DNA of 64,000 nucleotides from Candidatus Poseidoniaceae archaeon (GCA_943789275.1 CALSTM010000003.1:515935-579934), one strand, 5' to 3'. Numbered from the stretch's first letter, positions 6,361-64,000 are shown. Numbers and translations: made by a program. Notes: a model not told the origin generated them from the sequence alone.

Positions 6361-6404
6361 GATTTCATACAGGCACTTATCAGTAAACACCGTTACGGGC
6401 GCTT

Positions 6405-6956
6405 ATGGAAGTCACGCGAAAATTTGTACGAATTTTCATTCTTATCTTTGGGACACTGGTTCTGGTCTCGTATGTTTATGGCCTCTCCCATGCATCGGAC
6501 ACCGAAGCACTCTGGGGTGGAATTCCTTGGTCGCAAGCACAAATGATTGTACCGTTCATGTTCCTGGCAGCGTTCGGTTTTCTGACGTACTGGTGGACTG
6601 TTCTTTACCAAAACGATGTTTCCATGATGGACGCACTGCGATGGCCATGGGGCGAATCTGACGGCGGCGGAGGTGCTCGCTTATTGCTTGCATTTGCATT
6701 GCTGGTCATCCCCTCGGCACTGTGGCTTGAGGCGACCATCTATCACTTGGACAACGATTACAGTTGGACGCCAATTTTAGTGGTGGGTGTTTTGCTGTTG
6801 GCTTGTGTTGGAAACATCATGATGGGTTTACTGGCTTATTCAGCGTATGTCGACGAAGTTCCAGGCGGAAAAAGAATGCTGCTTGGTTCGATATTACTCG
6901 GTATTCAATGCATTCTTTTTGATGGCATTTATTGGAACTTGAAATTCCCGTGGTGA
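6405..6956 (+). CDS. hypothetical membrane protein (4-5 TM helices)
   Basis: Hydrophobic segments (IFILIFGTLVLVSYVYGL, VPFMFLAAFGFLTYWW, LLLAFALLVIPSALWL, ILVVGVLLLACVGNIMMGLLAY). No known domain. Confidence 0.5.
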   Translation: MEVTRKFVRIFILIFGTLVLVSYVYGLSHASDTEALWGGIPWSQAQMIVPFMFLAAFGFLTYWWTVLYQNDVSMMDALRWPWGESDGGGGARLLLAFALLVIPSALWLEATIYHLDNDYSWTPILVVGVLLLACVGNIMMGLLAYSAYVDEVPGGKRMLLGSILLGIQCILFDGIYWNLKFPW

Positions 6957-6960
6957 AGGG

Positions 6961-6994
6961 CTCTCAAACCCGTGCCACTTTTGCCGTTTGAGAG
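6961..6994 (+). terminator. perfect 9-bp inverted repeat hairpin (CTCTCAAAC...GTTTGAGAG) with a T-rich loop after the membrane-protein gene; a second imperfect hairpin follows at 7013-7037
   Basis: Read directly from sequence. Lies between the 6405-6956 CDS and thrS. Archaeal terminators are usually oligo-T tracts, so function is uncertain. Confidence 0.3.
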
Positions 6995-7047
6995 TGATGG
7001 TTTGATGAAGGGCTTCCAACCCCGTAGGGGTTGAAGGAGAGCACCGT

Positions 7048-9072: not shown

Positions 9073-9081
9073 GGTTTTATC

Positions 9082-49978: not shown

Positions 49979-52900
49979 ATGCCCAGCATACGCCATGCGA
50001 ATTTCAACCGAGCCGTCGTTTTATCGCTCTTGATGATGATGATGACCCAAGTTGGTTATCTTGAATCCATGAACCCGTGGACAAACGGCGAAGAAACGCT
50101 CGACTCGAACGAAGTGATTTCACATACGTCTGCTGCAACGTCCGTGATGTATGGGAACAATTCGTTGTGGGCTCCTGACGGTAGTCAAATATTCAATGCT
50201 GGCGATGAAATGATGGCCGTTACATCCGATGTTGTGTTTTATATAGGAGCCACTAATCAAAACCCTCAAGACTTTGAGAAATGTTTGGCTGCATACAACT
50301 CCTCCAACATGACGAGATGGATTCCAAACATTGCAGGTCGATCAAATACCTGCTCTAGTAGTGTAGTAGGCCAGTCGATTGCTGAATTCAACTTCATTAC
50401 TCAAGTCGATGGACTCACATTTTTTGTCATGAAGGCCTCCCCAGGCAGGCAACAGATTCATGCCTACAATCCTGCAAACGACACGGTGTATCTTCACGAC
50501 ACCTCCCGTACTGGAAAAACTATTCTTGATAGTGTTGCAATTGGCAGAACAATATACTCACTGCAAAACTACCCCTTTATGATGACAGCATACAACATTG
50601 ACAATGGTTCTTCATGGGATATCTCAACTTCATCCCAATATTTTGTTGGTTTAAACGCCGTAGGAGGCAAAATTCTAGCTTTCAACAACAATACACAACA
50701 ACCATCGGGTCCGAATAATTGCAGCTACACAGGTTCATGTTATGAGCCATGGATTTACGATCCAGCCAACAACACATGGTTCAGGCCAACAAGAGGAAAC
50801 GAAATCATCAACAGGCCCATTGCGACAAGTGATTCCAAAGCCCTTGTCACCAATGGACAGATGTTTTGGGCTGACACTAACTACACCTACGGAATGGGTG
50901 CGTGGGTGTTTGATTCATCCAACAACACATATTGGATGCTTGATGCAAATGCGTCAACAGGGATGTCAACTATCACAACTGGACGATCTTCAGCAATTCG
51001 TTCTGGAACATCAATTTTCTATCTTACCAGACCTGCGTATTCGGTTTCCGGGCAAACCTTGTATGGCCTCGATCTTTGGGGTTACAGCACTGTCAATTCG
51101 TCGAGTTGGCGTCTATCGAACATCACGGAATTGCACCAACCTGATGCTCAATATGGATGTTCACAACAGCTTGCCGGACTCGCCAATGGCGATTTTGTGA
51201 TGTCCTTCGGGCGGGGTACGGGTTGCAACACGGTAGAAGTCGTATTTTATTCTTTAACCAACGACACGGCATGGCAAGTTTCTGGACTCGACTCTCCAAG
51301 CGATACCTCAAAGGTTTATTCTTTTCAGGGAAATGATATGGGACTATTGGGGGTTTATGGGAACACTGTTTATCTGAAGGGTAAAACTGCATACCCTTCC
51401 TATGAGCATGGACTCATTGCTTATGACGCTACGAATGGTTCATCGTATTCAACAACGGTTACGGGAGGATTCATCTCTGGTATTACCAGTAACCAGCCCG
51501 TACTCGGAAACGGGGGTCAATTCGTTTTCACGATGGGAAGTTATACCTGTGACTGTAACCCTTCTTGGGCAGATAGCTCCAGATATTCGTTTGCAGTCTG
51601 GACACCAACCGCTATCACCGTTAGCGATGCATGGAATCTCACACCTGGTCAGCGTATCGATGGACCGATTACAGGAGGTTTGGGCGGCGCATCGGATTCG
51701 GGTGTAGGCGTTCAAAATCTAACTGCCAGTGCCGAAGGTGCAGAACTCATCATCGACGAGGCCATGACCAACATCACCTTCCAATACAATTCCAGTGCGG
51801 CAAGCGGCTCAGGCGGCGGCTCAGGCGGCATGACCAACGTCACCGGTGCAACCTGCAGCGTTTCACCTTCTCTTCCAACCGGCCTATCCATCGACAGCGG
51901 CACGTGCACCATCAGCGGTACACCTTCAGTTGCAACAACGAACACAACTTACACGGTCACGGCGGTCATGAGCGGTGTGACCTACCAGACAACGGTATGG
52001 CTCTCAAGCGCTTACCTCCCACTCACGCCAAGTGTCGAAGGTGCAGAACTCATCCTCGATGAGGCCATGACCAACATCACCTTCCAGTACAACGCCAGTG
52101 CAGCAAGCGGCTCAGGCAGCGGCTCGGGCAGCGGCGGCATGACCAACCTCACCAATGCAACAAGTTGTGTTGCTTCACCAAGCCTACCAACCGGCCTGTC
52201 CATCGACAGCAGCACGTGCACCATCAGCGGTACACCAACGGTTGCGACGACAAACACGACCTACACGGTCACCGCCAACATCAGCAACGTAACCTACCAG
52301 CCAACGGTATGGCTCTCAAGCGCTTACCTACCACTCACGCCAAGTGTCGAAGGTGCAGAACTCATCCTCGATGAGGCCATGACCAACATCACCTTCCAGT
52401 ACAACGCCAGTGCAGCAAGCGGCTCAGGCAGCGGCTCAAATCAATCAAGTTTCGTCAATAACATCGGACTGAGAACCACATCGGGTTCAGCCACTCAAAT
52501 GATCAATGGGACAGCCATCACACCGATTGAATTCTCTCTTGAATGGGACAATTTCTCCCTGCCGAGTAATCTGAGTTCCAATGAAAAGGTGACATTCCCG
52601 TTCGACCATTCGTTCAACGACACATCGTCCACGCCCATGGAAAACTCAACCGCTTCGAACCTCACCTACGACCGACACGGCCGAGAAATGCACGCCCTGG
52701 ATGATGAAATTGAATACGGTTGGAGTGCGACAAATCGCAGTGAATTGGCAATCAATTCAAACACCATTTCACTCTCTCTTTGGGTAAAGCCAACCAATGT
52801 TGGGACAGTGCAAAACATCATCGACAACCACCCACAATACGACCTTAGAATAGATGCAAACGGGGCGCTCAGCTTCAGAATACGTCAAACTGGCAACGGA

Positions 52901-55900
52901 GCGTGGAACGACCATTATTCGAGCATACAACTCGAGAATGATGTGTGGTATCACATTGGCGTATCCGCAACGTACAGCAGCGGTTACGTGGTGAATTTCT
53001 ACGTAAATGGGTCGTCTGATGTCACGCGAACATCATCAGGTACTCAATTTACATCAACGTCAGGGACTACTTTAGGCCTCAGCAGTGCCGATAGTTGGTA
53101 TGATGGCTTTGATGGTGTTCTTGATGACCTGTACATATACGACGGACTCCTCTCTGCATCGAATTTTGCCACACTGATGGATGTCGGTGAAATCACGTGG
53201 GATATTTCGCCCGCTCTTCCGAGTGAATTGTCGCTGGATACAATCACAGGGACAATCACTGGAACACCTCCTAGCTCCCAAGGCGCAGGCCAATACACGG
53301 TGTATGCCAACTCCTCCACGACTTCCTATTCGCGAACATTCAACCTGAGTTTGAATTCATTCATGCCCACCGTCACCGGTGCAACATGTACGGTTTCACC
53401 TTCCCTTCCAACCGGCCTGTCCATCGACAGCAGCACGTGCACCATCAGCGGTACACCAACGGTTGAGACGAGCAACACGACCTACACGGTCACCGCCAAC
53501 ATCAGCAACGTGACCTACCAGGGCAGCGTGTGGTTGTCCACCTCGACGTTCGGCACCATCACCTCAGCGGTGGAAGGTGCGGCGCTCAACTTGGGTGAAG
53601 CGATGACCCCGATCACGCTCAATTACACGGTGAACGTCAACGCTTCATCTGGTTCTTCAGGATCTTCCGGTTCCAGTGGAGGCTCGGGTTCAAGCGGCGG
53701 CTCTTCGAGTTCCTCGTCCTCTGTTTATGCAAACAACAAGCTGTCTGCTGGATCTTCCCACACCTGTGCCATCCTTGACAACGGCGACCTGAAGTGTTGG
53801 GGGCTGGGATGGCACGGACAGTTGGGCGATGGAGGAAGCGGGTTTAGCTACGACACCAACGCACCTTCATCCACCGCCATCAACCTCGGCAGTGGCCGAA
53901 CGGCCGTTGCTGTGTCTGCTGGAGGTTCCCACACCTGCGCCATCCTTGACAACGGCGACCTGAAGTGTTGGGGGTATGACGGCTACGGACAGTTGGGCGA
54001 TGGAGGAAGCAACACGAACACCAACGCACCTTCATCCACCGCCATCAACCTCGGCACGGGCCGCACGGCCGTTGCTGTGTCTGCTGGAGGTTCCCACATC
54101 TGCGCCATCCTTGACAACGGCGACCTGAAGTGTTGGGGGCGGGACAATTACGGACAGTTGGGCGACGGTGGAAGCAACACGGACACCAACGCACCTTCAT
54201 CCACCGCCATCAACCTCGGCACGGGCCGAACGGCCGTTGCGGTGGCTGCTGGATCTTACCATGAGTTTACCTGTGCCATCCTTGACAACGGCGACCTGAA
54301 GTGTTGGGGGCGGGACACTTCGGGACAGTTGGGCGATGGAGCAGGCACCAATAACCTCAACGCACCTTCTTCCACGCCGATTGACCTTGGCAGTGGCCGA
54401 ACGGCCGTTGCGGTGTCTGCTGGAAGTGCCCACGCCTGCGCCATCCTTGACAACGGTGACCTGAAGTGTTGGGGGTCTAACTCCTTTGGGTCGTTGGGCG
54501 ATGGAGGAAGCCACGCGTACACCAACGCACCTTCATCCACCGCCATCAACCTCGGCACGGGCCGAACGGCCGTTGCTGTGTCTGCTGGAAATGGCTTCAC
54601 CTGCGCCATCCTTGACAACGGTGAGGCGAAGTGTTGGGGGTATGACTACAGTGGACAGTTGGGCGATGGAGGAAGCAACACGAACACCAACGCACCTTCA
54701 TCCACCGCCATCAACCTCGGCACGGGCCGAACGGCCGTTGCGGTGGCTGGTGGAAATGGCCACAACTGCGCCATCCTTGACAACGGTGAGGCGAAGTGTT
54801 GGGGGTATAACTCCCAAGGAGAGTTGGGCGACGGTGGAAGCAACACCAATCAGGGTTCACCGGTAGCTGTTTCTGGCAGCAACACCTGGGATGCCACGAC
54901 CACCATCGCCACTTGGGAAACACACCCTGCTTTACCAGCGGGCATGAGCATCTCAGGCGGTACGATCAGCGGCACACCTTCGGTCTATGCGACCAATCAA
55001 ACCTACACGATTTACGCCAATAAGAGCGGTTATTCAACCACGCACGAGTTGTACTTTAGCGTGGATACAGACAATGCGCATACCGTCGTTGAAAATCAGA
55101 CGATTGATCCAATTGGCTTCCATCCTCCGTTCTGGAACGGTACGACCGCTTGGACGGTCTCACCTGCCTTGCCGGGCAACCTCTCCATCAACGGAAGCAC
55201 CGGTGAAATCACCGGAACGGTCAACGGAACGCTGACCAACACCACCTACACGGTGACAGCGACGCACAGTGGCTCAGGCGCTGCAACGGAAACCTTCTCG
55301 TTCAACTTGCAGAGTCTTGCTGATTACGATGGCGACGGTCTTGCCAACGACTTGCCAAGCGATTACGATGCAGCTGAAGGGCCAACCTCTGGTCTTGTTG
55401 CTGACGATGATGACGACGGCGACGGCCTTGCCGACAGCATCGAAACGAATACTGGAACCTACATTGACGCCAGCGATACGGGCACCGACCCATTGAATCC
55501 AGACACCGACGGTGATGGTATCTGCGACGGACCAAATGCAGTACCTCCAATCTGTGTTGCAGGTCCAGACATGGACCCGAACGGTGAGAGTTTCCCACCA
55601 ACCTTGGTGGCCATCAACAACACCGCCATCTCAACGCTTGCTCCATACTTGGCAGTAAGCGGTGGAACGTACGAAATTGCACCCGACTTGCCAGCAACCC
55701 TGTCACTTGACCCCGCAACCGGTGAAATCACCGGTACACCGACCGAAACCATCACCAACACGACCTTCACCATGTGGTCGAACAACTCCAACGGTGATTC
55801 TCTCTCGTGGAACTTCACCATTGAAATCTTGGAAGACAGCGACGGCGACGGAATGCCAAACGAACTTCCGGGCGATTATGATCCAACCAACCCTGATGCA

Positions 55901-56881
55901 CCTGGCCTTGTGGAAGACACTGACGATGATAACGACGGACTTTCCGACACCAACGAATCAGAGATTGGCACCAATCCACTCAACCCAGATACAGACGGCG
56001 ACGGTATGTGCGACGGACCTGTGGCTTCGCCACCAGACTGCGTTGCTGGCCCTGACGCCTTCCCGCTTGACCCTGCTGGCGACACCGATACAGACGGCGA
56101 CGGCAACCCAGACACGCTTAACCCTCCTTCAAACAGCGACCCTGCTTTGGTTGAGGACTTGGACGACGACGGTGACGGCTTGGACGACGTGAACGAAACG
56201 GGCACGGGCATCTACAACAGCAGCACTGACACGGGAACCGACCCGCTTGACCCAGACACCGATAACGACGGTATTTGCGACGGACCGAACGCTGTCTATG
56301 ACGTTCAAGGCAACCTCATCTGCGTTGCTGGACCTGACGATACACCGTTTGGCGAAGCTGCGGAAGGGGTTGTGTATGGCTTGAACAACACACAGTTCTC
56401 AAGTCTCGTACCGCCTTACCAATTGCCTGGTGCAACATGGAGTATTTCTCCAGACTTGCCTGATGGACTGAGCATTGACCCAGTCAGCGGAATCATCAGC
56501 GGAACACCGACTGAAGTGATGGACAACATCACCTTCACCATTTTCGGCATCGCTCTGATACCTCATCCATCACCTTTGATTTCAACTTGCAAATTTTGGA
56601 AGACACTGACCGCGACGGTCTGCCCAACGACCTGCCCGACGATTATCCGGTTGACGGAGAACTCATCGAAGACTTGGACGACGACGGTGATGGTGCTTCT
56701 GACCTCTCAGAAACCGGTACTGGAATCTACAACGGAACGGATGACATGGGTACAGACCCGCTTGATCCTGATACGGATGATGACGGAATCTGTGACGGTC
56801 CAAACGATGTTCTGCCGCAATGTATCGGTGGTCCTGACTCCAATCCGTTTGGTACTGGACCGCTCGGGCCTACAGTTTTAG
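49979..56881 (+). CDS. giant cell-surface adhesin-like protein, N-terminal 2300-aa segment (frame A) of a gene apparently broken by frameshifts
   Basis: Signal peptide (VVLSLLMMMMTQVGYL), an NxS/T-rich Kelch-like region, three ~103-aa near-identical CADG/He_PIG-type Ig-like repeats (SPSLPTGLSIDSSTCTISGTPTVATTNTTYTVTA), a LamG/ConA-like lectin domain (SLWVKPTNVGTVQNIID...), a Ser/Gly linker, seven RCC1-like repeats (CAILDNGDLKCWG..GQLGDGG), more He_PIG domains and TSP type-3-like Ca-binding repeats (DTDGDGICDGPN, DDDDDGDGLAD). Confidence 0.8.
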   Translation: MPSIRHANFNRAVVLSLLMMMMTQVGYLESMNPWTNGEETLDSNEVISHTSAATSVMYGNNSLWAPDGSQIFNAGDEMMAVTSDVVFYIGATNQNPQDFEKCLAAYNSSNMTRWIPNIAGRSNTCSSSVVGQSIAEFNFITQVDGLTFFVMKASPGRQQIHAYNPANDTVYLHDTSRTGKTILDSVAIGRTIYSLQNYPFMMTAYNIDNGSSWDISTSSQYFVGLNAVGGKILAFNNNTQQPSGPNNCSYTGSCYEPWIYDPANNTWFRPTRGNEIINRPIATSDSKALVTNGQMFWADTNYTYGMGAWVFDSSNNTYWMLDANASTGMSTITTGRSSAIRSGTSIFYLTRPAYSVSGQTLYGLDLWGYSTVNSSSWRLSNITELHQPDAQYGCSQQLAGLANGDFVMSFGRGTGCNTVEVVFYSLTNDTAWQVSGLDSPSDTSKVYSFQGNDMGLLGVYGNTVYLKGKTAYPSYEHGLIAYDATNGSSYSTTVTGGFISGITSNQPVLGNGGQFVFTMGSYTCDCNPSWADSSRYSFAVWTPTAITVSDAWNLTPGQRIDGPITGGLGGASDSGVGVQNLTASAEGAELIIDEAMTNITFQYNSSAASGSGGGSGGMTNVTGATCSVSPSLPTGLSIDSGTCTISGTPSVATTNTTYTVTAVMSGVTYQTTVWLSSAYLPLTPSVEGAELILDEAMTNITFQYNASAASGSGSGSGSGGMTNLTNATSCVASPSLPTGLSIDSSTCTISGTPTVATTNTTYTVTANISNVTYQPTVWLSSAYLPLTPSVEGAELILDEAMTNITFQYNASAASGSGSGSNQSSFVNNIGLRTTSGSATQMINGTAITPIEFSLEWDNFSLPSNLSSNEKVTFPFDHSFNDTSSTPMENSTASNLTYDRHGREMHALDDEIEYGWSATNRSELAINSNTISLSLWVKPTNVGTVQNIIDNHPQYDLRIDANGALSFRIRQTGNGAWNDHYSSIQLENDVWYHIGVSATYSSGYVVNFYVNGSSDVTRTSSGTQFTSTSGTTLGLSSADSWYDGFDGVLDDLYIYDGLLSASNFATLMDVGEITWDISPALPSELSLDTITGTITGTPPSSQGAGQYTVYANSSTTSYSRTFNLSLNSFMPTVTGATCTVSPSLPTGLSIDSSTCTISGTPTVETSNTTYTVTANISNVTYQGSVWLSTSTFGTITSAVEGAALNLGEAMTPITLNYTVNVNASSGSSGSSGSSGGSGSSGGSSSSSSSVYANNKLSAGSSHTCAILDNGDLKCWGLGWHGQLGDGGSGFSYDTNAPSSTAINLGSGRTAVAVSAGGSHTCAILDNGDLKCWGYDGYGQLGDGGSNTNTNAPSSTAINLGTGRTAVAVSAGGSHICAILDNGDLKCWGRDNYGQLGDGGSNTDTNAPSSTAINLGTGRTAVAVAAGSYHEFTCAILDNGDLKCWGRDTSGQLGDGAGTNNLNAPSSTPIDLGSGRTAVAVSAGSAHACAILDNGDLKCWGSNSFGSLGDGGSHAYTNAPSSTAINLGTGRTAVAVSAGNGFTCAILDNGEAKCWGYDYSGQLGDGGSNTNTNAPSSTAINLGTGRTAVAVAGGNGHNCAILDNGEAKCWGYNSQGELGDGGSNTNQGSPVAVSGSNTWDATTTIATWETHPALPAGMSISGGTISGTPSVYATNQTYTIYANKSGYSTTHELYFSVDTDNAHTVVENQTIDPIGFHPPFWNGTTAWTVSPALPGNLSINGSTGEITGTVNGTLTNTTYTVTATHSGSGAATETFSFNLQSLADYDGDGLANDLPSDYDAAEGPTSGLVADDDDDGDGLADSIETNTGTYIDASDTGTDPLNPDTDGDGICDGPNAVPPICVAGPDMDPNGESFPPTLVAINNTAISTLAPYLAVSGGTYEIAPDLPATLSLDPATGEITGTPTETITNTTFTMWSNNSNGDSLSWNFTIEILEDSDGDGMPNELPGDYDPTNPDAPGLVEDTDDDNDGLSDTNESEIGTNPLNPDTDGDGMCDGPVASPPDCVAGPDAFPLDPAGDTDTDGDGNPDTLNPPSNSDPALVEDLDDDGDGLDDVNETGTGIYNSSTDTGTDPLDPDTDNDGICDGPNAVYDVQGNLICVAGPDDTPFGEAAEGVVYGLNNTQFSSLVPPYQLPGATWSISPDLPDGLSIDPVSGIISGTPTEVMDNITFTIFGIALIPHPSPLISTCKFWKTLTATVCPTTCPTIIRLTENSSKTWTTTVMVLLTSQKPVLESTTERMTWVQTRLILIRMMTESVTVQTMFCRNVSVVLTPIRLVLDRSGLQF
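51725..52440 (+). repeat. about 2.4 copies of a 303-312-bp near-identical tandem repeat encoding CADG/He_PIG-like domains
   Basis: AGTGTCGAAGGTGCAGAACTCATCCTCGATGAGGCCATGACCAACATCACCTTCCAGTACAACGCCAGTGCAGCAAGCGGCTCAGGC recurs at 52031 and 52343. Antisense ORFs 51712-51945 and 52012-52257 are near-identical. Confidence 0.8.
53741..54870 (+). repeat. seven tandem RCC1-like repeats (156-159 bp each) with high nucleotide identity
   Basis: Recurring GCCATCCTTGACAACGGCGACCTGAAGTGTTGGGGG...GGACAGTTGGGCGATGGAGGAAGCAAC. Seven blades fit an RCC1-type beta-propeller. Confidence 0.8.
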
Positions 56882-59157
56882 TCAACAATTCGATGACTGC
56901 ACCAATTCCTCCAGCAAACCCAGTACCAGGTGCAGTTTGGGAAGTCTCTCCTGACTTGCCGGATGGCCTCGTGCTCGACCCAGCAACGGGAATCATTACC
57001 GGAACGCCAACACAATCAATGGACAACACGACGTTCACCATGTGGGCCAACACAACCACGCCAAGCATGTCGATTATCTCGACGTTCTGGCTTGAAGTGC
57101 TTGAGGACAGCGACGGTGATGGAATGCCAGACGCACTTCCAGACGATTATCCTGACATGAATCCACCTTACGATTTGGTCGAAGATTTGGACGACGATAA
57201 CGACGGTATGTCGGATGACGATGAAGCAATCATTGGAACCGACCCTACCAATCCTGATTCAGACGGCGACGGATTCTGTGATGGTAACGGAACGGGCGAT
57301 GGCGACTGCTATGCAGGACCTGACTCCTCACCGCTTGACCCAGCACTGCCAGCCAATACTGATGGTGATGCGTATCCTGATGACGACCCAGACGGTGAAG
57401 GCGGCTTAGTTGCTGATACCGATGACGACAACGATGGTTTCCTTGATACCCGTGAATTGGAGTGTCTATCTGACTCTCTCGATGCGACAGACGTGCCTGA
57501 AGACCTTGATGGTGACGGGGAATGTGATGCATTAGACGACGATATTGACGGTGACGGATTGATCAACGATCTTGAATCCAATACTGGTGTTTACAATCCA
57601 CCTTTCGAAACAGGAACAGACCCTCGTAATGCTGACACCGATGGTGACGGCGTTTGCGATGGCGACGAATCTCCACCGAACAACAATTGCACTGCAGGAC
57701 ACGATGCGTTCCCGCTTGACCCTGCAGCTCACGCAGACACTGACGGTGACGGGTTCCCTGACGAACTGTTCGGAAATTCAACCAGCACTCCTCCACTCAC
57801 GCTCGATATGGACGATGACAACGATGGATGGACCGACGTTGATGAAACGGCGTGCGGCACAGACAGTTTGGATGACGCAAGTACACCCGTTGATACCGAT
57901 GTAGACGGCATTTGTGATGCACTGGATGACCTGTTGGATCTACCGTTTACGATGACATACCCAACCCAAAATCTAACCATTGGAGTTGGCGAAGAAATGA
58001 TCCCTTTCCTGCCGAATATTACCGGTTTAGGAGAGGTTGCAACGTGGGAAATCAGTGGAGAATTGCCCGATGGCCTCACCTTTGGTTGGAGTCCTGCTCG
58101 AGATGCCTTGTTGGATGGAAGTATTCGCGGAACACCACTGAATGCCTCGGAAATGAGCAACCTCACCATCTGGGCGAACAATTCTGCTTACAGTCAATCG
58201 TTCGAAGTGTCTCTCACCGTCAACGATGTTGTTTCAGATGACAGTGATGGTGATGCTGAATCCAGTCTCAAGTGGGGTTACATCTGTTGTCCTTTACTGC
58301 TGTTGATTTTGCTTGCAGTGTTCTTAATCTTCATGCCAAATGAAAAGACCGTTTTGAAAGATGCAGAGCCTGAACATACGGTTGTGAAACCAAGAACAAA
58401 GAAAGGCAGTGGAACAGAAGATGATCCGTTTGTGTTGAAATCGATTAAGGGTGTAAAACCTGGAAGTCTTGTTTACAGCAAAGAAATCATCACAATCGAT
58501 GAGATTTCCCCGAACCTTTTGATTAAGTGTGAAGACCGTAACAGTTCTTCGAAGTTCCAAAGCATGAAATTGTCAAATGAACTGCTTGAAACAGACAGTG
58601 AAGAGGATGAACCAGCACTGATTTCTACAGCAATTAATGCGACTGAACACGGTGTCATTCGTTTCAAGTTGGTCTACGATGACAGCGAATTGCCAACATT
58701 TGCAGGCCAGACCGTCAAGGCCTTGGTTAAGGTTGGTAACAATTCTGTCTACTTCCTTTGGGAAATTGAAATCAAGAAAGATTCAGATTGGCAGAAAAAG
58801 ATGGCTGCGAGTGATGCAGAATCCGACGATGAATCTGGAAACGCTGTCGTCGAGTACGTCACTGAAAAAGCGACGGTTGCCAAAGAGAAAACGCACTCCG
58901 TTCTTGATATGGATGGCGACGGTAAACTCACCGTTGAAGACGTTAAGCGCGGTGCTACTCAAATGGCAGAAAACGCCAAGAAGGGCGTTGAAATCGTCAA
59001 AGAGAAGGTTGTTGCTGCTAAGGTTGCGACCGACGCCAAGCTTGCCGAAAGAAAAGCTGCTAAGGAAACCAAGGCTGCCAAGCAAGCCAAGGCCCAAGCC
59101 GATGCAGATGCCAAGGAAGCCAAAGCTGCAGAACAGAAGGCTGCGCAAGGAGGCTGA
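56587..59157 (+). CDS. same giant adhesin gene, middle segment (frame B): TSP3-like Ca-binding repeats, He_PIG domains, TM helix, cytoplasmic region with EF-hand-like loop
   Basis: Continues the domain series of the upstream segment after a frame change at ~56545-56590 (FTIFGIA | SDTSSITFDFNLQILEDTDRDGLPNDLPDDYP parallels earlier FTMWSNNSNGDSLSWNFTIEILEDSDGDGMPNELPGDYDP). TM helix WGYICCPLLLLILLAVFLIFM (~58270-58335). EF-hand-like LDMDGDGKLTVEDV. KA-rich helix begins. Confidence 0.7.
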   Translation: MQILEDTDRDGLPNDLPDDYPVDGELIEDLDDDGDGASDLSETGTGIYNGTDDMGTDPLDPDTDDDGICDGPNDVLPQCIGGPDSNPFGTGPLGPTVLVNNSMTAPIPPANPVPGAVWEVSPDLPDGLVLDPATGIITGTPTQSMDNTTFTMWANTTTPSMSIISTFWLEVLEDSDGDGMPDALPDDYPDMNPPYDLVEDLDDDNDGMSDDDEAIIGTDPTNPDSDGDGFCDGNGTGDGDCYAGPDSSPLDPALPANTDGDAYPDDDPDGEGGLVADTDDDNDGFLDTRELECLSDSLDATDVPEDLDGDGECDALDDDIDGDGLINDLESNTGVYNPPFETGTDPRNADTDGDGVCDGDESPPNNNCTAGHDAFPLDPAAHADTDGDGFPDELFGNSTSTPPLTLDMDDDNDGWTDVDETACGTDSLDDASTPVDTDVDGICDALDDLLDLPFTMTYPTQNLTIGVGEEMIPFLPNITGLGEVATWEISGELPDGLTFGWSPARDALLDGSIRGTPLNASEMSNLTIWANNSAYSQSFEVSLTVNDVVSDDSDGDAESSLKWGYICCPLLLLILLAVFLIFMPNEKTVLKDAEPEHTVVKPRTKKGSGTEDDPFVLKSIKGVKPGSLVYSKEIITIDEISPNLLIKCEDRNSSSKFQSMKLSNELLETDSEEDEPALISTAINATEHGVIRFKLVYDDSELPTFAGQTVKALVKVGNNSVYFLWEIEIKKDSDWQKKMAASDAESDDESGNAVVEYVTEKATVAKEKTHSVLDMDGDGKLTVEDVKRGATQMAENAKKGVEIVKEKVVAAKVATDAKLAERKAAKETKAAKQAKAQADADAKEAKAAEQKAAQGG

Positions 59158-60152
59158 AGCAAGCCAAGGCTGCTGAAGAGAAGGCTGCTAAGGAAGCCAA
59201 AGCACAAGCTGATGCTGACGCAAAGGCTGCCAAGCAAGCCAAGGCTGCTGAAGAGAAGGCTGAGAAGGAAGCTGAGAAGCAAGCCAAGGCCCAAGCCGAT
59301 GCAGATGCCAAGCAAGCCAAGGCTGCTGAAGAGAAGGCTGAGAAGGAAGCTGAGAAGCAAGCCAAGGCCCAAGCCGATGCAGATGCCAAGGAAGCCAAAG
59401 CACAAGCTGATGCTGACGCAAAGGCTGCTAAGGAAGCCAAGGCTGCTGAAGAGAAGGCGGCTAAGGAAGCCAAGGCTGCTGAAGAGAAGGCTGAGAAGGA
59501 AGCTGCTGCCAAGAAGAAGGCTGAGAAGAAACCAGCATCGAAGGAAGTCAAGAAAAAGGAAGAACTCAAGCGGGTTCAAGAACGCTCGGAAACGATTGAC
59601 TTTTCGATTCTTGGAACAGCCAAGGCAAGCGACAAAGACGACCTTCAAGTCATGAAGGGTATTGGCCCATTCATTGAAGAAAAGCTCAATGCGCTCGGAA
59701 TCTACACTTACCTACAAGTCTCGAAGATGACCTCAAAACTTGAAACAGACGTCAACGAGGCCATCGAGTTCTTCCCTGGCCGTGTCAAGCGAGACCAATG
59801 GGTCAACCAGGCGAAGATTTTGCTCGGTGAGGACGTGAAACTCGATGAGAAGGCACTCAAGCAAGCCGAAGACCTCGAACGAATCTCCAAGAAGGCTGAG
59901 TCAATTGACTTCGCTACGCTTGGTGTTGCAAGCGCTTCCGAGAAGGACTCGCTGCAGACAATCAAAGGGATTGGTCCGTTTATTGAAGAGAAGTTGAATG
60001 CGCTTGGTATTTACACCTTCGAACAAGTTGGAAACATGACGCCTGATATTGAAGAACAGGTCAACAAGGCCATCGAGTTCTTCCCAGGCCGTGTCAAGCG
60101 AGACCAATGGGCGAAGCAGTCAAGGGCTCTTCACGAACAAACTACTAAGTGA
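59157..60152 (+). CDS. same giant adhesin gene, C-terminal segment (frame C): KA-rich repeat linker plus two HhH (DUF4332-like) repeats
   Basis: The KA-rich frame (KQAKAAEEKAEKEAEKQAKAQADADAK...) runs without stops from ~59157 into the track ORF 59652-60152. That ORF has two repeats of [I/M]KGIGPFIEEKLNALGIYT[Y/F].QV..MT......V..AIEFFPGRVKRDQW..Q (HhH/DUF4332-like). The junction is a 1-nt deletion (GCTGAAGCAAGCC versus paralogous GCTGAGAAGCAAGCC). Confidence 0.5.
   Translation, partial: KQAKAAEEKAAKEAKAQADADAKAAKQAKAAEEKAEKEAEKQAKAQADADAKQAKAAEEKAEKEAEKQAKAQADADAKEAKAQADADAKAAKEAKAAEEKAAKEAKAAEEKAEKEAAAKKKAEKKPASKEVKKKEELKRVQERSETIDFSILGTAKASDKDDLQVMKGIGPFIEEKLNALGIYTYLQVSKMTSKLETDVNEAIEFFPGRVKRDQWVNQAKILLGEDVKLDEKALKQAEDLERISKKAESIDFATLGVASASEKDSLQTIKGIGPFIEEKLNALGIYTFEQVGNMTPDIEEQVNKAIEFFPGRVKRDQWAKQSRALHEQTTK
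59233..59388 (+). repeat. perfect 78-bp tandem duplication (26 aa: AKQAKAAEEKAEKEAEKQAKAQADAD) within a longer degenerate KA-rich repeat tract (~59000-59560)
   Basis: 59233-59310 is identical to 59311-59388 (AGCAAGCCAAGGCTGCTGAAGAGAAGGCTGAGAAGGAAGCTGAGAAGCAAGCCAAGGCCCAAGCCGATGCAGATGCCA). Confidence 0.9.
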
Positions 60153-60207
60153 TTAAACCCGTTATGAAAGGCTTCAAAACCTTTATGCAATAAGGGGTCG
60201 AAGAATC

Positions 60208-63200
60208 ATGCACGGTGCGGATGCTTTGCTCCCTCTAACATTAAAAGCGAACAAGACTGCCTCGAATGGCTCGAACTCGCTAAAATCGGTGATTTTGTCG
60301 CTCTTGATGATTTCAATGTCCCTCTCAGCGGGAATTGTTCAATCAAGTCCTTCCCACGAGACTCTGGAAAAGTCTTCGAGCGAACTGAGCTTGTCGACAA
60401 TTTCTGACTCCGTCTCATCAGGCCTTGCTGAACTGAGCAGCTTGTTGGGGTTGGTTGAAGATCAGCCAGCCGAACTTGAACAATCCAATGCTGATGCGAT
60501 GTTGACTGGGGGTCGCTCCGTTCCTTCAGTATCGTATTCTCCCAGTACGTTCAACCTCGTTCGTAACACAGCAATGAGCGACCAAACGCCCACCTCATCT
60601 GGGGGCACGGTAACTTCTTGGTCTATTTCGCCGACTCTTCCTTCAGGTATTTCGATTTCATCATCGACGGGTACAATCTCCGGAACGCCGACTGTAATCA
60701 GCGCATCGACCTCCTACACTGTGACAGCAACCAACGGTGCCGGCAGCGATACTGCAACCATCACCATCTCCGTTACCGATGCTTTGCCGGTTATCGTTTA
60801 CTCTCCGAACACATTCACCGAGGCTGTGGGCACTGCAATGACGTCGGTCACACCGACATCGTACGCAGGTACGGTCGATTCTTACTCGATTTCTCCGTCG
60901 CTACCTCCGGGTTTGTCCTTGGATACCAGCACGGGTACCGTTAGCGGAACGCCAACTGCCGTCTCTTCATCAACATCCTACACCGTAACGGCGACCAACT
61001 CCGCAGGTACAGACACCGCCTCCCTCACTATTGTCGTCAATGACGTTGCACCAACTTCGATCAGTTACTCTCCGAACACATTCACGTTAACGAAGGGGAC
61101 ATTGATTTCTACGGTCACGCCGACCTCAAGTGGAGGGGCTGTCACATCATGGACCATTTCACCGTCTCTTCCAGCAGGACTTTCTTTGGCCTCTTCCGAT
61201 GGTGCAATCAGCGGAACACCGACTGAAGTGTCATCGTTACAAACTTACACCGTGACAGGTACGAACACTGGCGGGAGTGCTACTGCAGAGATCACGATTC
61301 AAGTCAATGATGTTGCTCCAATCATCGGTTACCCTACGACTTCTTACACCCTGGTCAAGGGTAGTGCCATGTCGAGCCCTGCAACACCTACCTCAACCGG
61401 TGGTACAGTTGTTACTTGGGATGTATCCCCTACCCTTCCATCAGGCCTCACTATTTCCAGTTCCACTGGTGTTATTTCAGGAACACCCACAACCGTTACT
61501 TCTTCTGCAGTCTACACCGTTACTGCGACCAACACCGGAGGCACAGATACAGCAACTGTGACCATTCAAGTCAATGATGTACAGCCGCTTATCGGTTATT
61601 CTCCGAGCTCTATTTTGTTGTCAAAGGGTACGACGATGTCGCCTGCCAGTCCAACGTTGTACGGCCAAGGACAAGTAGACTCATGGTCCGTCTCACCTTC
61701 TCTCCCCGCTGGAATAAGTCTTGACTCATCAACTGGTATCATCACCGGGATGCCTACCACTATCAGTCCCTCCGCTACGTACACCATCACTGCAACGAAC
61801 ACCGGTGGTACCGATACTGCAACCCTCACCATTACCGTCAATGATGCTACACCTTCAATTGCATTCTCTACGAATTCATTTACCCTGACCAAAGGCACTG
61901 CGATGACAACTACTACTCCATCATCAACCGGAGGAGCAGTTGTCACATGGTCTATCTCTCCATCGCTCTCGGCGGGGCTCTCTTTTGATTCTTCGACAGG
62001 AACACTTTCTGGAACACCAACCGTGGTTTCAGCCTCTACAGTCTACACGATTACTGCAACCAACACTGGCGGCAGTGATTCGGCTACCGTAACCATCGTT
62101 GTCAACGATATTGCTCCATCCGCTATAGCTTACAGCCCAAGTTCCTTCACCCTGACCAAGGATTCGGCTATGACTGCTGCCACACCTACCTCGAGCGGAG
62201 GTACAGTCGTCTCTTGGGCTGTTAGTCCATCGCTCCCAGCAGGTCTCTTATTGGATACCTCAACAGGTGAGATTTCTGGAACACCTACAGCCGTGACCTC
62301 TTCTGCCACCTACACCGTTACTGCAACCAACACCGGTGGCGATGCTACAACCACCGTGACCATCGTTGTCAACGACGTGATTCCATCTTCAGTTTCGTAC
62401 AGCGACAGTCCGTTTACTTTGACGAAAGATTCCCTCATGACGGCTTCTACGCCAACATACAGCGGAGGGACAGTCATCTCTTGGGCTGTTTCTCCATCGC
62501 TCCCAGCAGGTCTTGCCTTCTCTACCTCGACCGGTGAAATTTCAGGTACTCCATCGGCCGTCACTTCTTCGGCAACCTATACCATTACGGCAACCAACAC
62601 CGGTGGTGACGCTACGACCACCGTGACCATCGTTGTCAACGACATTATTCCATCTTCAGTTTCGTACAGTGGCAGTCCGTTTACCTTGACGAAAGATTCC
62701 TTGATGACGGCATCTACACCAACTTACAGCGGCGGAACAGTCATCTCTTGGGCAGTTAATCCTTCGCTCCCAGCAGGTCTTGTTCTCGATACTTCTACCG
62801 GAGAAATTTCCGGAACGCCTACAGCCGTGACCTCTTCTGCAACCTACACCATTACAGCCTCCAACACCGGTGGCAGCGCTACGACCACCGTGACCATCGT
62901 TGTCAACGACATCATCCCATCATCGGTTACTTACAGCCCGAATTCATTCACCCTGACCAAAGACAGCAGCATGACTGCTACTACACCAACCGCAAGTGGC
63001 GGTCCAGTCGTATCTTGGGCTGTTTCTCCATCGCTACCTGCTGGCATAGTCATCGATTCATCCACCGGTGAGATCAGCGGAACCCCAACAGCTGTGACCT
63101 CTTCGGCAACCTACACCATTACAGCCACCAACACCGGTGGTAGCGCTACGACCACTGTTACCATCGTTGTCAACGACATTATTCCATCATCGGTTGCCTA

Positions 63201-64000
63201 CAGCCCGAATTCATTCACCCTGACTAAAGACAGCAGCATGACTGCAACTACGCCTACTTCGAGCGGCGGTCCAGTCGTTACTTGGACAGTCTCTCCAACG
63301 CTACCTGCTGGCATAGTCATCGATTCATCCACCGGTGAGATTTCTGGAACCCCTACAGCCGTCACTTCTTCGGCAACCTACACCATTACGGCCACCAACA
63401 CCGGTGGTGACGCTACGACTACTGTTACCATCGTTGTCAACGACATCATCCCATCATCAGTTTCGTACAGTGACAGTCCGTTTACCTTGACGAAGGGTAC
63501 AACCATGACGGCCTCAACCCCGACCTCGAGTGGCGGTACCGTCATTTCCTGGGCTGTTTCTCCATCGCTCCCAGCAGGTCTTGCCTTCTCTACCTCGACC
63601 GGTGAAATTTCAGGTACTCCATCGGCCGTCACTTCTTCGGCAACCTATACCATTACGGCAACCAACACCGGTGGTGACGCTACGACAACCGTGACCATCG
63701 TTGTTAACGACGTGATTCCGTCTTCAGTCTCTTACAGCGGAAGTCCGTTCACATTGACCAAAGACTCGGCTATGACCGCAGCCACACCTACTTCCAGCGG
63801 CGGTACCGTTGTATCGTGGGCAGTCTCTCCTTCACTCCCTTCGGGCTTGGTTATCGATTCATCAACCGGTGTGATCAGCGGAACACCTACAGCAATCACT
63901 GCTTCAGCAACCTATACCATTACAGCCACCAACACCGGTGGAGACGCTACGACAACCGTGACCATCGTTGTCAACGACATTATTCCATCTTCAGTTTCGT
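60208..64000 (+). CDS. second giant surface protein, 3'-truncated by the window edge: signal peptide plus more than 13 tandem CADG/He_PIG (dystroglycan-type cadherin-like) domains
   Basis: Not in the ORF track because it runs off the window. The frame is open from the ATG at 60208 (after an in-frame TAA at 60154) to 64000. N-terminus SVILSLLMISMSLSAGIV (signal/anchor). Repeats of ...SYSPNSFTLTKDSxMTAxTPTSSGGxVxSWAVSPSLPAGLxxDSSTGEISGTPTAVTSSATYTITATNTGGDATTTVTIVVNDIIP. Confidence 0.8.
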   Translation, partial: MHGADALLPLTLKANKTASNGSNSLKSVILSLLMISMSLSAGIVQSSPSHETLEKSSSELSLSTISDSVSSGLAELSSLLGLVEDQPAELEQSNADAMLTGGRSVPSVSYSPSTFNLVRNTAMSDQTPTSSGGTVTSWSISPTLPSGISISSSTGTISGTPTVISASTSYTVTATNGAGSDTATITISVTDALPVIVYSPNTFTEAVGTAMTSVTPTSYAGTVDSYSISPSLPPGLSLDTSTGTVSGTPTAVSSSTSYTVTATNSAGTDTASLTIVVNDVAPTSISYSPNTFTLTKGTLISTVTPTSSGGAVTSWTISPSLPAGLSLASSDGAISGTPTEVSSLQTYTVTGTNTGGSATAEITIQVNDVAPIIGYPTTSYTLVKGSAMSSPATPTSTGGTVVTWDVSPTLPSGLTISSSTGVISGTPTTVTSSAVYTVTATNTGGTDTATVTIQVNDVQPLIGYSPSSILLSKGTTMSPASPTLYGQGQVDSWSVSPSLPAGISLDSSTGIITGMPTTISPSATYTITATNTGGTDTATLTITVNDATPSIAFSTNSFTLTKGTAMTTTTPSSTGGAVVTWSISPSLSAGLSFDSSTGTLSGTPTVVSASTVYTITATNTGGSDSATVTIVVNDIAPSAIAYSPSSFTLTKDSAMTAATPTSSGGTVVSWAVSPSLPAGLLLDTSTGEISGTPTAVTSSATYTVTATNTGGDATTTVTIVVNDVIPSSVSYSDSPFTLTKDSLMTASTPTYSGGTVISWAVSPSLPAGLAFSTSTGEISGTPSAVTSSATYTITATNTGGDATTTVTIVVNDIIPSSVSYSGSPFTLTKDSLMTASTPTYSGGTVISWAVNPSLPAGLVLDTSTGEISGTPTAVTSSATYTITASNTGGSATTTVTIVVNDIIPSSVTYSPNSFTLTKDSSMTATTPTASGGPVVSWAVSPSLPAGIVIDSSTGEISGTPTAVTSSATYTITATNTGGSATTTVTIVVNDIIPSSVAYSPNSFTLTKDSSMTATTPTSSGGPVVTWTVSPTLPAGIVIDSSTGEISGTPTAVTSSATYTITATNTGGDATTTVTIVVNDIIPSSVSYSDSPFTLTKGTTMTASTPTSSGGTVISWAVSPSLPAGLAFSTSTGEISGTPSAVTSSATYTITATNTGGDATTTVTIVVNDVIPSSVSYSGSPFTLTKDSAMTAATPTSSGGTVVSWAVSPSLPSGLVIDSSTGVISGTPTAITASATYTITATNTGGDATTTVTIVVNDIIPSSVS
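60520..64000 (+). repeat. 267-bp (89-aa) tandem repeat array with a higher-order ~1068-bp periodicity; the last ~8 copies are near-identical
   Basis: Antisense ORFs 62310-62564 and 63378-63632 differ by 3 aa and lie 1068 bp (4 x 267) apart. The protein shows repeated 89-aa units ending in VTIVVND. Confidence 0.85.

Follow-up and report, generated by a model that had tools for sequence, protein, structure and literature searches.

The window, a stretch of 64,000 nucleotides from a Candidatus Poseidoniaceae (Marine Group II) archaeon (GCA_943789275.1 CALSTM010000003.1:515935-579934), ends inside a giant gene that follows a paralogue of the same family. Translation showed that the frame opened by an ATG at 60208 is stop-free to 64000 (1264 codons), as a sequence-only reading of this DNA had proposed, and the nearest in-frame stop 5' of the ATG lies at 60154. 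The frame is part of a real gene, namely the 5' quarter of one of ~17 kb. A partial protein that matches the window at 100% (P0019) is named Candidatus Poseidoniaceae, all eight genome loci belong to Poseidoniales/Thermoplasmatota (CM001443.1 among them), and an archaeal CDC48 is also encoded in the window. The features are as follows:

49979..60152, plus strand: upstream paralogue of the same family, with an RCC1 propeller, He_PIG units, TSP3 repeats and the transmembrane (TM) segment ICCPLLLLILLAVFLIF
Tail of the upstream paralogue, plus strand: predicted cytoplasmic beta-domain, K/A/E-rich repeats (59056-59547) and two helix-hairpin-helix (HhH) modules
60153..60207, plus strand: 5' spacer of 55 nt, from the paralogue stop TGA (60150-60152) to the ATG
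60208..60342, plus strand: start codon and signal-peptide-like N-terminus, aa 1-45 (translation, hydropathy scan)
60343..60513, plus strand: Ser/Glu/Leu-rich linker, aa 46-102 (translation)
60514..62109, plus strand: He_PIG units 1-6, mutually diverged (55-65% nt identity), starting at 60514, 60781, 61045, 61312, 61579 and 61846
62110..63978, plus strand: He_PIG units 7-13 (74-90% nt identity), onset of a lineage-specific homogenised block, starting at 62110, 62377, 62644, 62911, 63178, 63445 and 63712
63979..64000, plus strand: first 22 nt of unit 14, where the gene exits the window
62482-62618, plus strand: copy 1 of a 137-nt exact repeat, the longest exact intragenic repeat
63550-63686, plus strand: copy 2 of the 137-nt exact repeat, at lag 1068 from copy 1
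63225..63298, plus strand: patch 1 of strain differences, in unit 11
63841..63981, plus strand: patch 2 of strain differences, in the last third of unit 13 and the first bases of unit 14
62310..62564, minus strand: antisense ORF of 84 aa
63378..63632, minus strand: antisense ORF of 84 aa, 76/84 identical to the preceding one

The spacer carries the motif AACCCGTTATGAAAGG at 60156-60171, which is common to loci L001 and L002 and partly to L003, as well as a purine-rich AAGGGGT at 60192-60198; these may represent an archaeal promoter or ribosome-binding site, and a sigma-70 and terminator scan gave no match. At the N-terminus of the product, a hydropathy scan placed a Lys-containing n-region before a hydrophobic h-region, SVILSLLMISMSLSAGIVQ (aa 27-45, nt 60286-60342), and the MSLSAG/A-[IV]V motif is kept in the orthologues P0008, P0006, P0001, and P0037. 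The linker that follows has no recognised domain, and no Pfam family covers it; once secreted, it would be the membrane-distal tip of the protein. Pfam recognised no ligand-binding head domain at this tip, which consists only of the 57-aa linker and He_PIG units. The visible product is rich in Ser and Thr (39.5% together), contains no Cys and very few charged residues, and has no N-glycosylation sequons in its visible mature part. The upstream paralogue is broken by two frame switches in the window, and such switches in neighbouring genes make some pseudogenisation or assembly error possible in the region.

Beyond the linker, 13 complete units of 88-89 aa occupy the frame and a 14th starts at 63979, in agreement with the earlier count of at least 13 consecutive 89-aa domains. 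Most units are 267 nt long (89 codons), while some are 264 nt (88 codons). In a Pfam scan of the 1264-aa product (E<=0.01), the expected family, He_PIG (PF05345), was matched in 13 separate stretches with 446.3 bits against a cut-off of 24 (E=9.4e-137). The proposed period of 267 bp was also recovered, as TRF reported 6.8 copies of this length over 62182-64000 (score 1886, 80% matches), and self-identity was 62% at lag 267, compared with ~33-47% at lags outside the multiples of 267. The two antisense ORFs, which differ at 8 of 84 residues rather than the 3 reported before, are by-products of the repeat and not genes; the He_PIG homology lies on the sense strand.

Divergence and selection of the repeat units

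The last ~8 units had been described as sharing >90% nucleotide identity, with units four apart almost identical, and neither description survived pairwise comparison. Identities between units 7-13 are 74-78%, apart from the four pairs 8/12 (89.9%), 10/11 (88.8%), 8/9 (85%), and 9/12 (80%), and the last third of each of these units is 83-98% conserved. Only units 8 and 12 are close at a distance of four (7/11 76%, 9/13 78%), and mean identities at lags 4 and 1 are 81% and 79%, respectively. With the extension provided by contig L012 (see below), the lag-4 pairs are 76, 90, 78, 74, and 88% identical, and the means at lags 4, 5, and 6 are 81.3, 81.8, and 81.4%. The reported 1068-bp signal is present, but its source is a single tract smaller than a unit, the 137-nt exact repeat, and not a regular period. 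Identity by lag is likewise flat in the 37-unit array of a sister strain (L013) and in two orthologous arrays of 50 units each (L002 and L003), and we therefore found no regular 4-unit higher-order periodicity in any of them. The closest unit pairs in L013 are 8/14 (99.6%, lag 6) and 11/20 (96.6%, lag 9).

Synonymous divergence between the window units is high (median pS 0.52; dS 0.34-1.5), and dN/dS lies between 0.08 and 0.17. Together, these values indicate that the units are old and under selection, and the dS range does not fit the very recent block duplications that had been proposed within the window. Window units 2, 3, 4, and 5 find their best matches in units 2, 3, 4, and 5 of L003, respectively, and units 1-6 of L002 and L003 are reciprocal best hits at offset 0. 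Judged by sequence comparison, units 1-6 are thus positional orthologues across other Poseidoniales lineages, and the homogenised block is lineage-specific. The array is laid out as six diverged, positionally conserved units, then the homogenised block, then diverged units. We suggest that the array changes through in-frame recombination and gene conversion among its 267-bp units, in which the strongly conserved last third of each unit would supply the homology and purifying selection would keep each unit folded. These results call for some caution in genome scans, as visually “near-perfect” protein repeats can conceal synonymous divergence that has reached saturation, and what looks like a higher-order period may come from one unit pair.

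Strain variation and assembly of the array

Two contigs confirm that the gene continues beyond the window. L012 is 100% identical over its overlap and adds 744 nt to the window gene, while L013, an independent contig, is 98.97% identical over 59920-64000, confirms the array seen in the window, extends it by 6.5 kb, and keeps the ORF open to at least 3,428 aa (10.3 kb). Between 59920 and 63224, L013 departs from the window at a single position, and 40 of the 42 differences between the two fall in the two dense patches in units 11 (14 differences) and 13 (26 differences), after which the arrays diverge. The patch 1 segment of L013 is identical to the homologous segment of its unit 10, which resembles the pattern left by a conversion tract, and L012 exactly matches the window version of patch 2, as well as the window variant of unit 13 over 263 nt. 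The differences are synonymous-rich and leave every unit intact. Near-identical co-occurring strains can therefore differ chiefly in the mosaic that makes up their central repeat block, which is relevant to surface microdiversity and virus-host dynamics.

The region had been expected to be a hotspot of copy-number and phase variation. The mosaic patches are in keeping with a hotspot of sequence variation, but copy number is not obviously unstable, as two distant orthologues have 50 canonical units each and near-equal total lengths. Phase variation finds no footing here, since copy changes would be in frame (267 = 3 x 89 nt), and 60100-64000 is free of homopolymers of >=7, of dinucleotide runs with >=5 copies and of 4-5-mer runs with >=4 copies. 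The warning of an assembly-risk region, by contrast, was strongly confirmed by contigs that break in the array. In a related strain, the short-read contig stops at 62481, just one base short of the 137-nt exact repeat, many public contigs begin or end inside the array, and the Iverson MG-II chromosome has Ns in the orthologous gene. Giant He_PIG-array genes are systematically broken in short-read MAGs, and they are consequently under-counted and under-described.

Full-length architecture in orthologues

The C-terminus of the window gene is predicted from orthologues at 66-71% identity. Two of these, on nanopore+pilon contigs with one frame switch each, give full lengths of ~5,642 (L002) and ~5,665 (L003) codons after one frame correction in each, and have ~50 canonical and ~5 divergent units each. 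The expectation of a giant surface protein built of He_PIG units is thus supported by orthologues of ~5,640-5,665 aa. A third orthologue (L004) runs from array to stop in a single uninterrupted frame of 4341 aa; its only TM segment, at aa 3729-3747, is followed by RRRDK, and its tail is 68% identical to and colinear with that of L003. The same order of parts recurs in many C-terminal fragments, and L008, P0146, P0211, and others resemble L004 in their TM segment. Pfam matches in the orthologues are He_PIG, TSP3_bac, HHH_5, and Cdd1.

Acidic residues precede the TM segment of the orthologues and Arg/Lys-rich sequence follows it, which fits an N-out, C-in topology, and the signal-like hydrophobic segment at the N-terminus of the window gene, conserved in orthologues, is what would be expected of a type I single-pass protein. 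The TM segment is followed by ~350-600 residues ending in HhH modules, which is unlike a PGF-CTERM/archaeosortase anchor, and the Pfam matches of the orthologue C-termini include no RTX family, nor is a T1SS signal seen there. The two HhH modules that end the predicted cytoplasmic tail match the C-terminal regions of NF009040, NF008966, NF008916, and NF045508, and are preceded by a K/A/E-rich low-complexity stretch. The upstream paralogue displays this C-terminal module of the family inside the window. Several genes of the giant He_PIG kind stand in tandem.

Fold of the repeat units

Units 8-9, modelled with AlphaFold2 at a pLDDT of 94.5, form two tandem beta-sandwiches in an all-beta structure, and Foldseek matched this model to titin Z1Z2, NCAM, contactin, SraP, and cadherin-23 with probability 1.00. 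The closest solved relative by sequence in a profile search of the PDB is SraP (4m03_A, E=4e-9, query positions 6-174), with two tandem modules aligned over 169 positions; Foldseek gave 26% identity. The Ca2+ ligands of SraP are Asp573/661, Asp601/690, Asn602/691, and Asp645/734 (PMC4047093). In a HMMER alignment, only one of four side-chain ligands is conserved, the linker Asp (D of VND), while D601/N602 align with Ser-Ser and D645 with Thr in the consensus unit. As these ligands are not conserved, the rod is only putatively rigid. The description of the units as CADG or cadherin-like therefore fits only loosely: the fold is similar to that of cadherin-like modules, but none of the Pfam cadherin models matched the 1264-aa product at E<=0.01, and the SraP-type calcium ligands are not conserved.

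Proposed function and alternative explanations

Our preferred reading, to which we assign a probability of roughly 0.75, is that the ~17-kb gene encodes a type I membrane surface fibre of ~5,600 aa, presumed to act in attachment. In this model, an N-terminal Sec-type signal would be followed by a rod of ~55 He_PIG Ig-like beta-sandwich domains, acidic TSP3-type calcium-binding repeats near the membrane, one transmembrane helix, and a cytoplasmic tail of ~350-600 aa with a beta-sandwich domain, a K/A/E-rich helix, and one or two HhH modules. From typical Ig-domain dimensions, the ectodomain would most likely form an extended fibre of ~200 nm, which may place the N-terminal units 1-6, conserved by position, at a distance from the cell, with the homogenised middle units acting as a spacer. 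Such a fibre could attach the cell to particles, algae, or other cells.

The composition of the protein also permits a possible, if less probable, role in a structural envelope or coat, in which many Ser/Thr-rich fibres would form a hydrated brush or glycocalyx-like layer instead of an adhesin. This layer might space the cell or shield it from viruses and grazers, and strain-specific mosaics would alter the exposed surface. The abundance of Ser and Thr, the lack of Cys and near-lack of charge, the missing head domain, the tandem arrangement of several such genes, and the confinement of differences between near-identical strains almost entirely to the unit mosaic all suit this idea. It sits less well with the conservation of the distal units 1-6 by position across lineages, which suggests specialised and not generic roles, and with a visible mature part that is free of N-glycosylation sequons. 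We regard as a long shot the idea that the family is a transmembrane coupling device and not a passive adhesin, with a fibre of ~200 nm connected by one TM helix to a cytoplasmic beta-sandwich domain, a long K/A/E helix, and two HhH modules like those on NuoE, ribosomal proteins S2 and L21, and phasin PhaH; if so, the HhH end would dock with nucleic acid or some large assembly in the cytoplasm, linking surface attachment or tension mechanically or regulatorily to the nucleoid or translation machinery.

Other explanations concern the array itself. It is unlikely that the unit order and sequence past ~62480, in the window or in L013, are chimeric and the strain differences artefacts. Short-read contigs do break exactly at the 137-nt repeat, L013 contains exact repeats of 260 nt and 146 nt that are hard for short reads, neighbouring genes in the window have frame switches, and Ns interrupt the gene in the Iverson chromosome. 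A chimera is nonetheless hard to reconcile with a frame that stays free of stops for 3.8 kb in the window and for 10.3 kb in L013, the near-complete agreement of the two up to 63224, the exact recurrence of the unit 13 variant in L012, and differences that are synonymous-rich between units that are all intact. Least probable, and largely refuted, is that the array is satellite-like and expanded recently, with a higher-order repeat of 4 units, rapid copy-number change, and on/off switching of expression. The 8/12 pair and its 137-nt tract speak for it, and the near-identical pairs in L013 imply some recent duplication or conversion in the lineage, but those pairs lie at lags 6 and 9, the other lag-4 pairs in the window reach only 76-78%, identity shows no trend with lag in three long arrays, and the window units are synonymously diverged. 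Equal canonical unit numbers in both distant orthologues and in-frame units devoid of slippage-prone tracts point the same way.

The proposed attachment fibre is of interest beyond this locus. Marine Group II are among the most abundant planktonic archaea and are uncultured, and their contact with particles, algae, and viruses has been deduced almost wholly from genomes. The reconstruction offered here (signal, ~55 He_PIG units, TSP3, TM, and HhH tail; ~5,650 aa) is a concrete, testable model.

Comparison with known systems

The window gene belongs to a known kind, the giant Ig-like repeat surface proteins. Its units match the He_PIG proteins that NCBI calls “putative Ig domain-containing protein”, a name borne by the identical partial protein P0019. 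In an exhaustive search, He_PIG-type arrays in proteins of 2,000-7,000 aa proved widespread, with 22,326 representatives at E<=0.001. Our literature search found no paper that connects Poseidoniales or other archaeal surface proteins with He_PIG. Thrombospondin genes have been reported as widespread in Ca. Poseidoniales and linked to cell adhesion (Rinke et al. 2018, PMC6461757), and the TSP3_bac repeats of the orthologues and the upstream paralogue are a feature shared with those genes. That survey used KO-level annotation, and neither He_PIG arrays of giant size nor the TM anchor and the HhH tail are described in it (PMC6461757).

In SraP of Staphylococcus aureus (PDB 4M03/4M00), tandem CDHL modules build a fairly rigid stem that holds a binding module outward (PMC4047093). 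We propose the same stem role for the Poseidoniales array, although the Poseidoniales protein, with its predicted ~55 modules and no recognisable head, contrasts with the two modules and lectin head of SraP.

MpIBP, LapA, and SiiE have a central extender of near-identical Ig-like repeats flanked by diverged domains that are presumably specialised, carry calcium-binding repeats close to one end, and are exported by T1SS with N-terminal retention in the outer membrane. The homogenised extender, diverged flanks, and calcium-binding repeats near one end are common to both designs, while the Poseidoniales protein differs in its N-terminal signal, its predicted C-terminal TM anchor in the archaeal membrane, and its large cytoplasmic tail. 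A K/A/E-rich linker with HhH is also found at the C-terminus of alphaproteobacterial NuoE, ribosomal proteins S2/L21, and the haloarchaeal phasin PhaH, whereas here the cassette would stand on the cytoplasmic end of a giant surface protein. Finally, the top-scoring He_PIG giants are bacterial and have leucine-rich repeats, an autotransporter barrel, or dockerin-like tails as heads or anchors, and the Poseidoniales family is set apart from them by its combination of array, TSP3 repeats, a single C-terminal TM segment, and a predicted cytoplasmic HhH tail.

The target gene and its repeat units

The target gene starts with an ATG at position 60208 and remains open for 1264 codons on the forward strand, up to base 64000, and the closest in-frame stop 5' of this ATG is at position 60154. 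The stop codon of the preceding gene lies at 60150-60152, leaving 55 nt to the target start. The product begins with a Lys-containing segment followed by a hydrophobic stretch, SVILSLLMISMSLSAGIVQ (aa 27-45), and a 57-residue Ser/Glu/Leu-rich linker then leads to 13 complete units of 88-89 residues each, with a 14th starting at 63979. All 13 units match the He_PIG family (PF05345; 446 bits, E=9e-137 in Pfam), Tandem Repeats Finder reports a period of 267 over 62182-64000 (6.8 copies, 80% matches, score 1886), and self-identity reaches its maximum of 62% at lag 267. Because of the open frame, the Pfam match, the Tandem Repeats Finder result, and the lag-267 maximum, the basic repeat observation is real and far beyond chance, which confirms the open frame of tandem He_PIG units at a 267-bp period that had been proposed from the sequence alone. 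The features around the gene are as follows:

49979-60152 (+), upstream paralogue, a giant gene of the same family
59056-59547 (+), Lys/Ala/Glu-rich tandem repeats with periods of 15, 18, 33, 78, and 198 nt
59502-60149 (+), two HhH modules at the end of the upstream paralogue
60156-60171, candidate archaeal promoter element, about 45 nt 5' of the ATG
60208-64000 (+), target gene, open-ended
62482-62618 and 63550-63686, 137-nt exact repeat

The window also encodes an archaeal CDC48-type ATPase and other housekeeping genes. The candidate promoter element, AACCCGTTATGAAAGG, is common to two contigs with related genes (L001 and L002) and partial in a third (L003), while the remaining intergenic sequence differs. 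A scan for sigma-70 promoters and terminators around the start, which is not suited to archaea, returned none, and tRNA and Rfam scans of the whole 64-kb window gave no matches. G+C content is 0.53-0.57 with negative GC skew across the upstream giant and the target gene (52000-56000), compared with about 0.49 in the rest of the window; this probably reflects a coding composition rich in Thr, Ser, Gly, and Asp.

Full-length architecture of the family

Part of the target protein is already public under a generic name: a 758-aa partial protein, 'putative Ig domain-containing protein, partial [Candidatus Poseidoniaceae archaeon]', has 100% BLASTP identity to 60% of the window product. The contig that carries it (L001, GCA_028411295.1) has 98.9% identity to window 59388-62481 and ends at the equivalent of position 62481, one base short of the 137-nt exact repeat. 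Five further proteins (P0008, P0006, P0001, P0037, and P0074) have this N-terminus in common with the window product, and their diverged early units are arranged in an identical order. Among GTDB species representatives, which do not include the source contig of the window, a scan gave eight loci, all from Poseidoniales/Thermoplasmatota, including the original MG-II chromosome CM001443.1, whose record has Ns within this gene. In two protein searches none of the matches listed was longer than about 1.75 times the query, so that no full-length protein was returned. When the N-terminal 634 aa were used for an exhaustive search of representatives, bacterial He_PIG giants, similar in the repeats only, made up the bulk of the matches, and no complete orthologue was obtained.

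The length of the gene can be estimated from two nanopore+pilon contigs, L002 and L003, in which it was called as two pieces that overlap at a single frame switch. Once joined, these give about 5,642 and 5,665 codons, respectively, for a whole gene of about 17 kb, and a nucleotide profile of the window units finds 50 canonical 267-bp units in each, followed by about five divergent units and then acidic DxDxDG repeats. Searching with the unique C-terminal region of the L002/L003 gene recovered many C-terminal fragments with the same order, in which an acidic stretch precedes a single TM helix (for example, YYLCCLPLLLLLLLLLWLGRRK) and the chain continues with a cytoplasmic domain of some 170 aa, a segment rich in K, A, and E, and finally one HhH module or two. 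L004, a Poseidoniaceae contig free of Ns, carries one unbroken frame of 4341 aa from within the array to the stop, with its sole TM at aa 3729-3747 and, in its last 1500 aa, Pfam matches to He_PIG (six), TSP3_bac, HHH_5, and Cdd1. Its tail is colinear with and 68% identical to that of the L003 orthologue, compared with only 34% identity to the upstream paralogue in the window. With acidic residues ahead of the TM and an Arg/Lys cluster behind it, the protein would probably have an N-out, C-in topology.

N-x-S/T sequons cluster in the membrane-proximal half of the L004 frame (ORF 2-13024, aa 1500-4000), where the divergent units have recurrent NNT and NIT motifs, and there are none in the visible mature part of the window gene; judging by this distribution, N-glycosylation may be limited to the base of the stalk. 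Modelling of P0211, a complete C-terminal fragment, gave a structure of modest quality (mean pLDDT 59) in which the TM helix can be recognised together with a cytoplasmic domain made entirely of beta strands (pLDDT 72-87), one long helix, and a pair of helical HhH modules. The fold matches of this tail are weak and generic beta-sandwiches (a GH123 N-terminal domain and PapD-like proteins), and we drew no functional inference from them.

The upstream paralogue, read as a single gene, encodes an RCC1 propeller, He_PIG, and TSP3 domains, with the TM, cytoplasmic domain, K/A/E repeats, and two HhH modules behind them; because it has the same C-terminal module, giant genes of this family stand in tandem here. 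A comparable arrangement is present in another Poseidoniales MAG (L007, 7868-10966 and 10758-14936), where a gene with a signal peptide and RCC1-like repeats adjoins a He_PIG giant and starts 18 nt past its stop; the giant surface genes of the family thus form tandem clusters. The 59056-59547 repeats encode the low-complexity helical linker of the cytoplasmic tail of the upstream gene. This gene has two frame switches in the window, at ~56545-56554 and ~59064-59157, the latter at the start of the repeat region, and over the same region the related strain L001 has one continuous ORF of 2215 aa. Either the gene is a pseudogene, or the window assembly contains indel errors here.

Layout and age of the array

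The near-perfect regularity first ascribed to the array does not hold at the level of individual units. Units 1-6 have 55-71% nucleotide identity to all other units and 55-65% among themselves, and units 7-13 are mostly 74-78% identical to one another, with exceptions at pairs 8/12 (89.9%), 10/11 (88.8%), 8/9 (85%), and 9/12 (80%), so that the >90% identity proposed for the last eight or so is wrong. Units four apart had also been described as almost identical, yet only one of the three lag-4 pairs available in the window is raised (8/12; 7/11 is at 76% and 9/13 at 78%). The 1068-bp signal is present in the sequence, but it stems from one tract, the 137-nt exact repeat, and not from a regular period. 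Two antisense ORFs, said to differ by 3 aa over 84, in fact differ at 8 of 84 residues; we rejected them as genes, since the repeat itself gives rise to them. Conservation inside a unit is 83-98% over the last third, and the first two-thirds are variable.

The units of the window are old and individually maintained by purifying selection, because synonymous divergence is high (for units 7-13, a median synonymous difference of 0.52 per site, or a dS of about 0.9) and dN/dS is only 0.08-0.17 (Nei-Gojobori). Even the closest pairs, 8/12 and 10/11, have a dS of ~0.34, which contradicts the very recent block duplications that the sequence-only reading had seen here.

The array continues past the window end, as that reading had anticipated, in two JGI metagenome contigs found via a 32-mer specific to unit 13. 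One of them (L013, Ga0209603_1001970, reverse-complemented), covered over 10,573 of its 20,056 bp, is 98.97% identical to window 59920-64000 and keeps the frame open for another 6.5 kb, for a product of no fewer than 3,428 aa and 37 units; the other (L012) is identical to the final 263 nt of the window and runs on for 744 nt. As both match the part of the array that the other assemblies do not cross, this part is independently supported. No regular four-unit period emerges from the longer arrays: mean identity by lag is flat in L013 (70-74%), likewise in L002 and L003, and in the window plus its L012 extension it is 81.3, 81.8, and 81.4% at lags 4, 5, and 6.

The layout that these sequences trace is a three-part one of diverged units 1-6, a middle block, and distal diverged units. 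Units 1-6 are positional orthologues across lineages: each one in L002 has its reciprocal best hit in L003 at offset 0, and units 2-5 of the window match units 2-5 of L003. The homogenised block of L013 spans units 7-21 and mixes four or five subtypes irregularly, with the highest identities at pairs 8/14 (99.6%, lag 6) and 11/20 (96.6%, lag 9). Units of the middle block are up to 100% alike within L013 and at most 73% identical to units of other lineages, and beyond unit 7 positional orthology between L002 and L003 was not established, as identities are near-tied at ~70%. Such a pattern would be expected if expansion and homogenisation were specific to each lineage and restricted to the middle of the array.

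Strain differences

There are 42 differences between the window and L013, and just one of them falls in the first 3.3 kb (59920-63224). Nearly all the others lie in two patches:

63225-63298, unit 11, patch 1: 14 of the 42 differences
63841-63981, unit 13, patch 2: 26 of the 42 differences

In patch 1, L013 is identical to the homologous segment of unit 10, the pattern that a conversion tract leaves, and in patch 2 the window version is matched exactly by L012. Past base 64000, where L012 represents the window strain, identity to L013 in register is only 84%. Given these patchy differences and the divergence past 64000, two otherwise near-identical strains appear to carry differently arranged middle blocks. 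A caveat is that repeat-induced assembly chimeras could produce such differences; the exact L012 match speaks for the window version, with the proviso that L012 is possibly from the same sample as the window. Pair 8/14 of L013 includes a 260-nt exact repeat (2440-2699 and 4042-4301, reverse complement) that the window lacks, its units 8 and 14' having 89% identity; the likely source is either a very recent duplication or conversion event in the L013 strain or an assembly collapse. On a longer time scale, the equal canonical count (50) and near-equal total length of two distant orthologues, L002 and L003, speak against rampant copy-number change. Phase variation, also suggested earlier, finds no footing: the unit is an exact multiple of three, and 60100-64000 contains no slippage-prone tracts.

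Proposed function

The target protein is best read, from its predicted architecture, as a type I membrane-anchored surface fibre. An Ig-like domain is about 4 nm long, so that a fibre of 55 domains would span roughly 200 nm. In such a fibre, the distal units 1-6, conserved by position, would be candidates for specific contacts, the homogenised block could act as a spacer, and the TSP3 repeats may form a calcium-binding, membrane-proximal module. An adhesive role would agree with the particle-association and 'thrombospondin gene' arguments that have been made for Poseidoniales (PMC6461757). The target protein has no recognisable head domain, and a coat or brush instead of an adhesin is a serious rival for the role of the fibre.

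Comparison with known systems

AlphaFold2, given units 8-9 with an alignment of the window's own units, predicts two tandem beta-sandwiches (pLDDT 94.5), for which Foldseek returns tandem domains of the Ig and cadherin types, namely titin Z1Z2, contactins, NCAM2, SraP, cadherin-23, and LigA. In sequence, the nearest solved structure is 4m03_A, the cadherin-like tandem stem of SraP from S. aureus (E=4e-9, 26% identity). The earlier label 'cadherin-like' thus stands as a fold-level resemblance and not as family membership, because no Pfam cadherin model matches the window product. The SraP stem is reported to be rigidified by one Ca2+ per module and to project a lectin head outward (PMC4047093). 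In an HMMER alignment, one of its four Ca2+ ligands is kept in the window units, the linker Asp, which is the invariant D of the VND motif closing each unit; Ser, Ser, and Thr stand at the remaining three, and we therefore rejected SraP-type calcium binding by the units.

According to the exhaustive representative search, giant arrays of He_PIG units are common among bacteria, and we found no description of the giant He_PIG genes of Poseidoniales in the literature searched. Within that literature, the full family architecture with TM anchor and cytoplasmic HhH tail, the three-part organisation of the array, and the patchy strain differences all appear undescribed, and they raise the interest of this gene somewhat above that of an ordinary repeat protein. 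The HhH modules (also P0211 aa 443-612), with the motif DDLQxIKGIGPFIxEKLNALGI...EFFPGRVKRDxW, belong to the same domain that extends the C-terminus of alphaproteobacterial NuoE and ribosomal proteins S2 and L21, and of the haloarchaeal phasin PhaH (NCBIfam). From these likenesses, the HhH domain looks like a promiscuous cassette, here placed at the cytoplasmic end of giant surface proteins.
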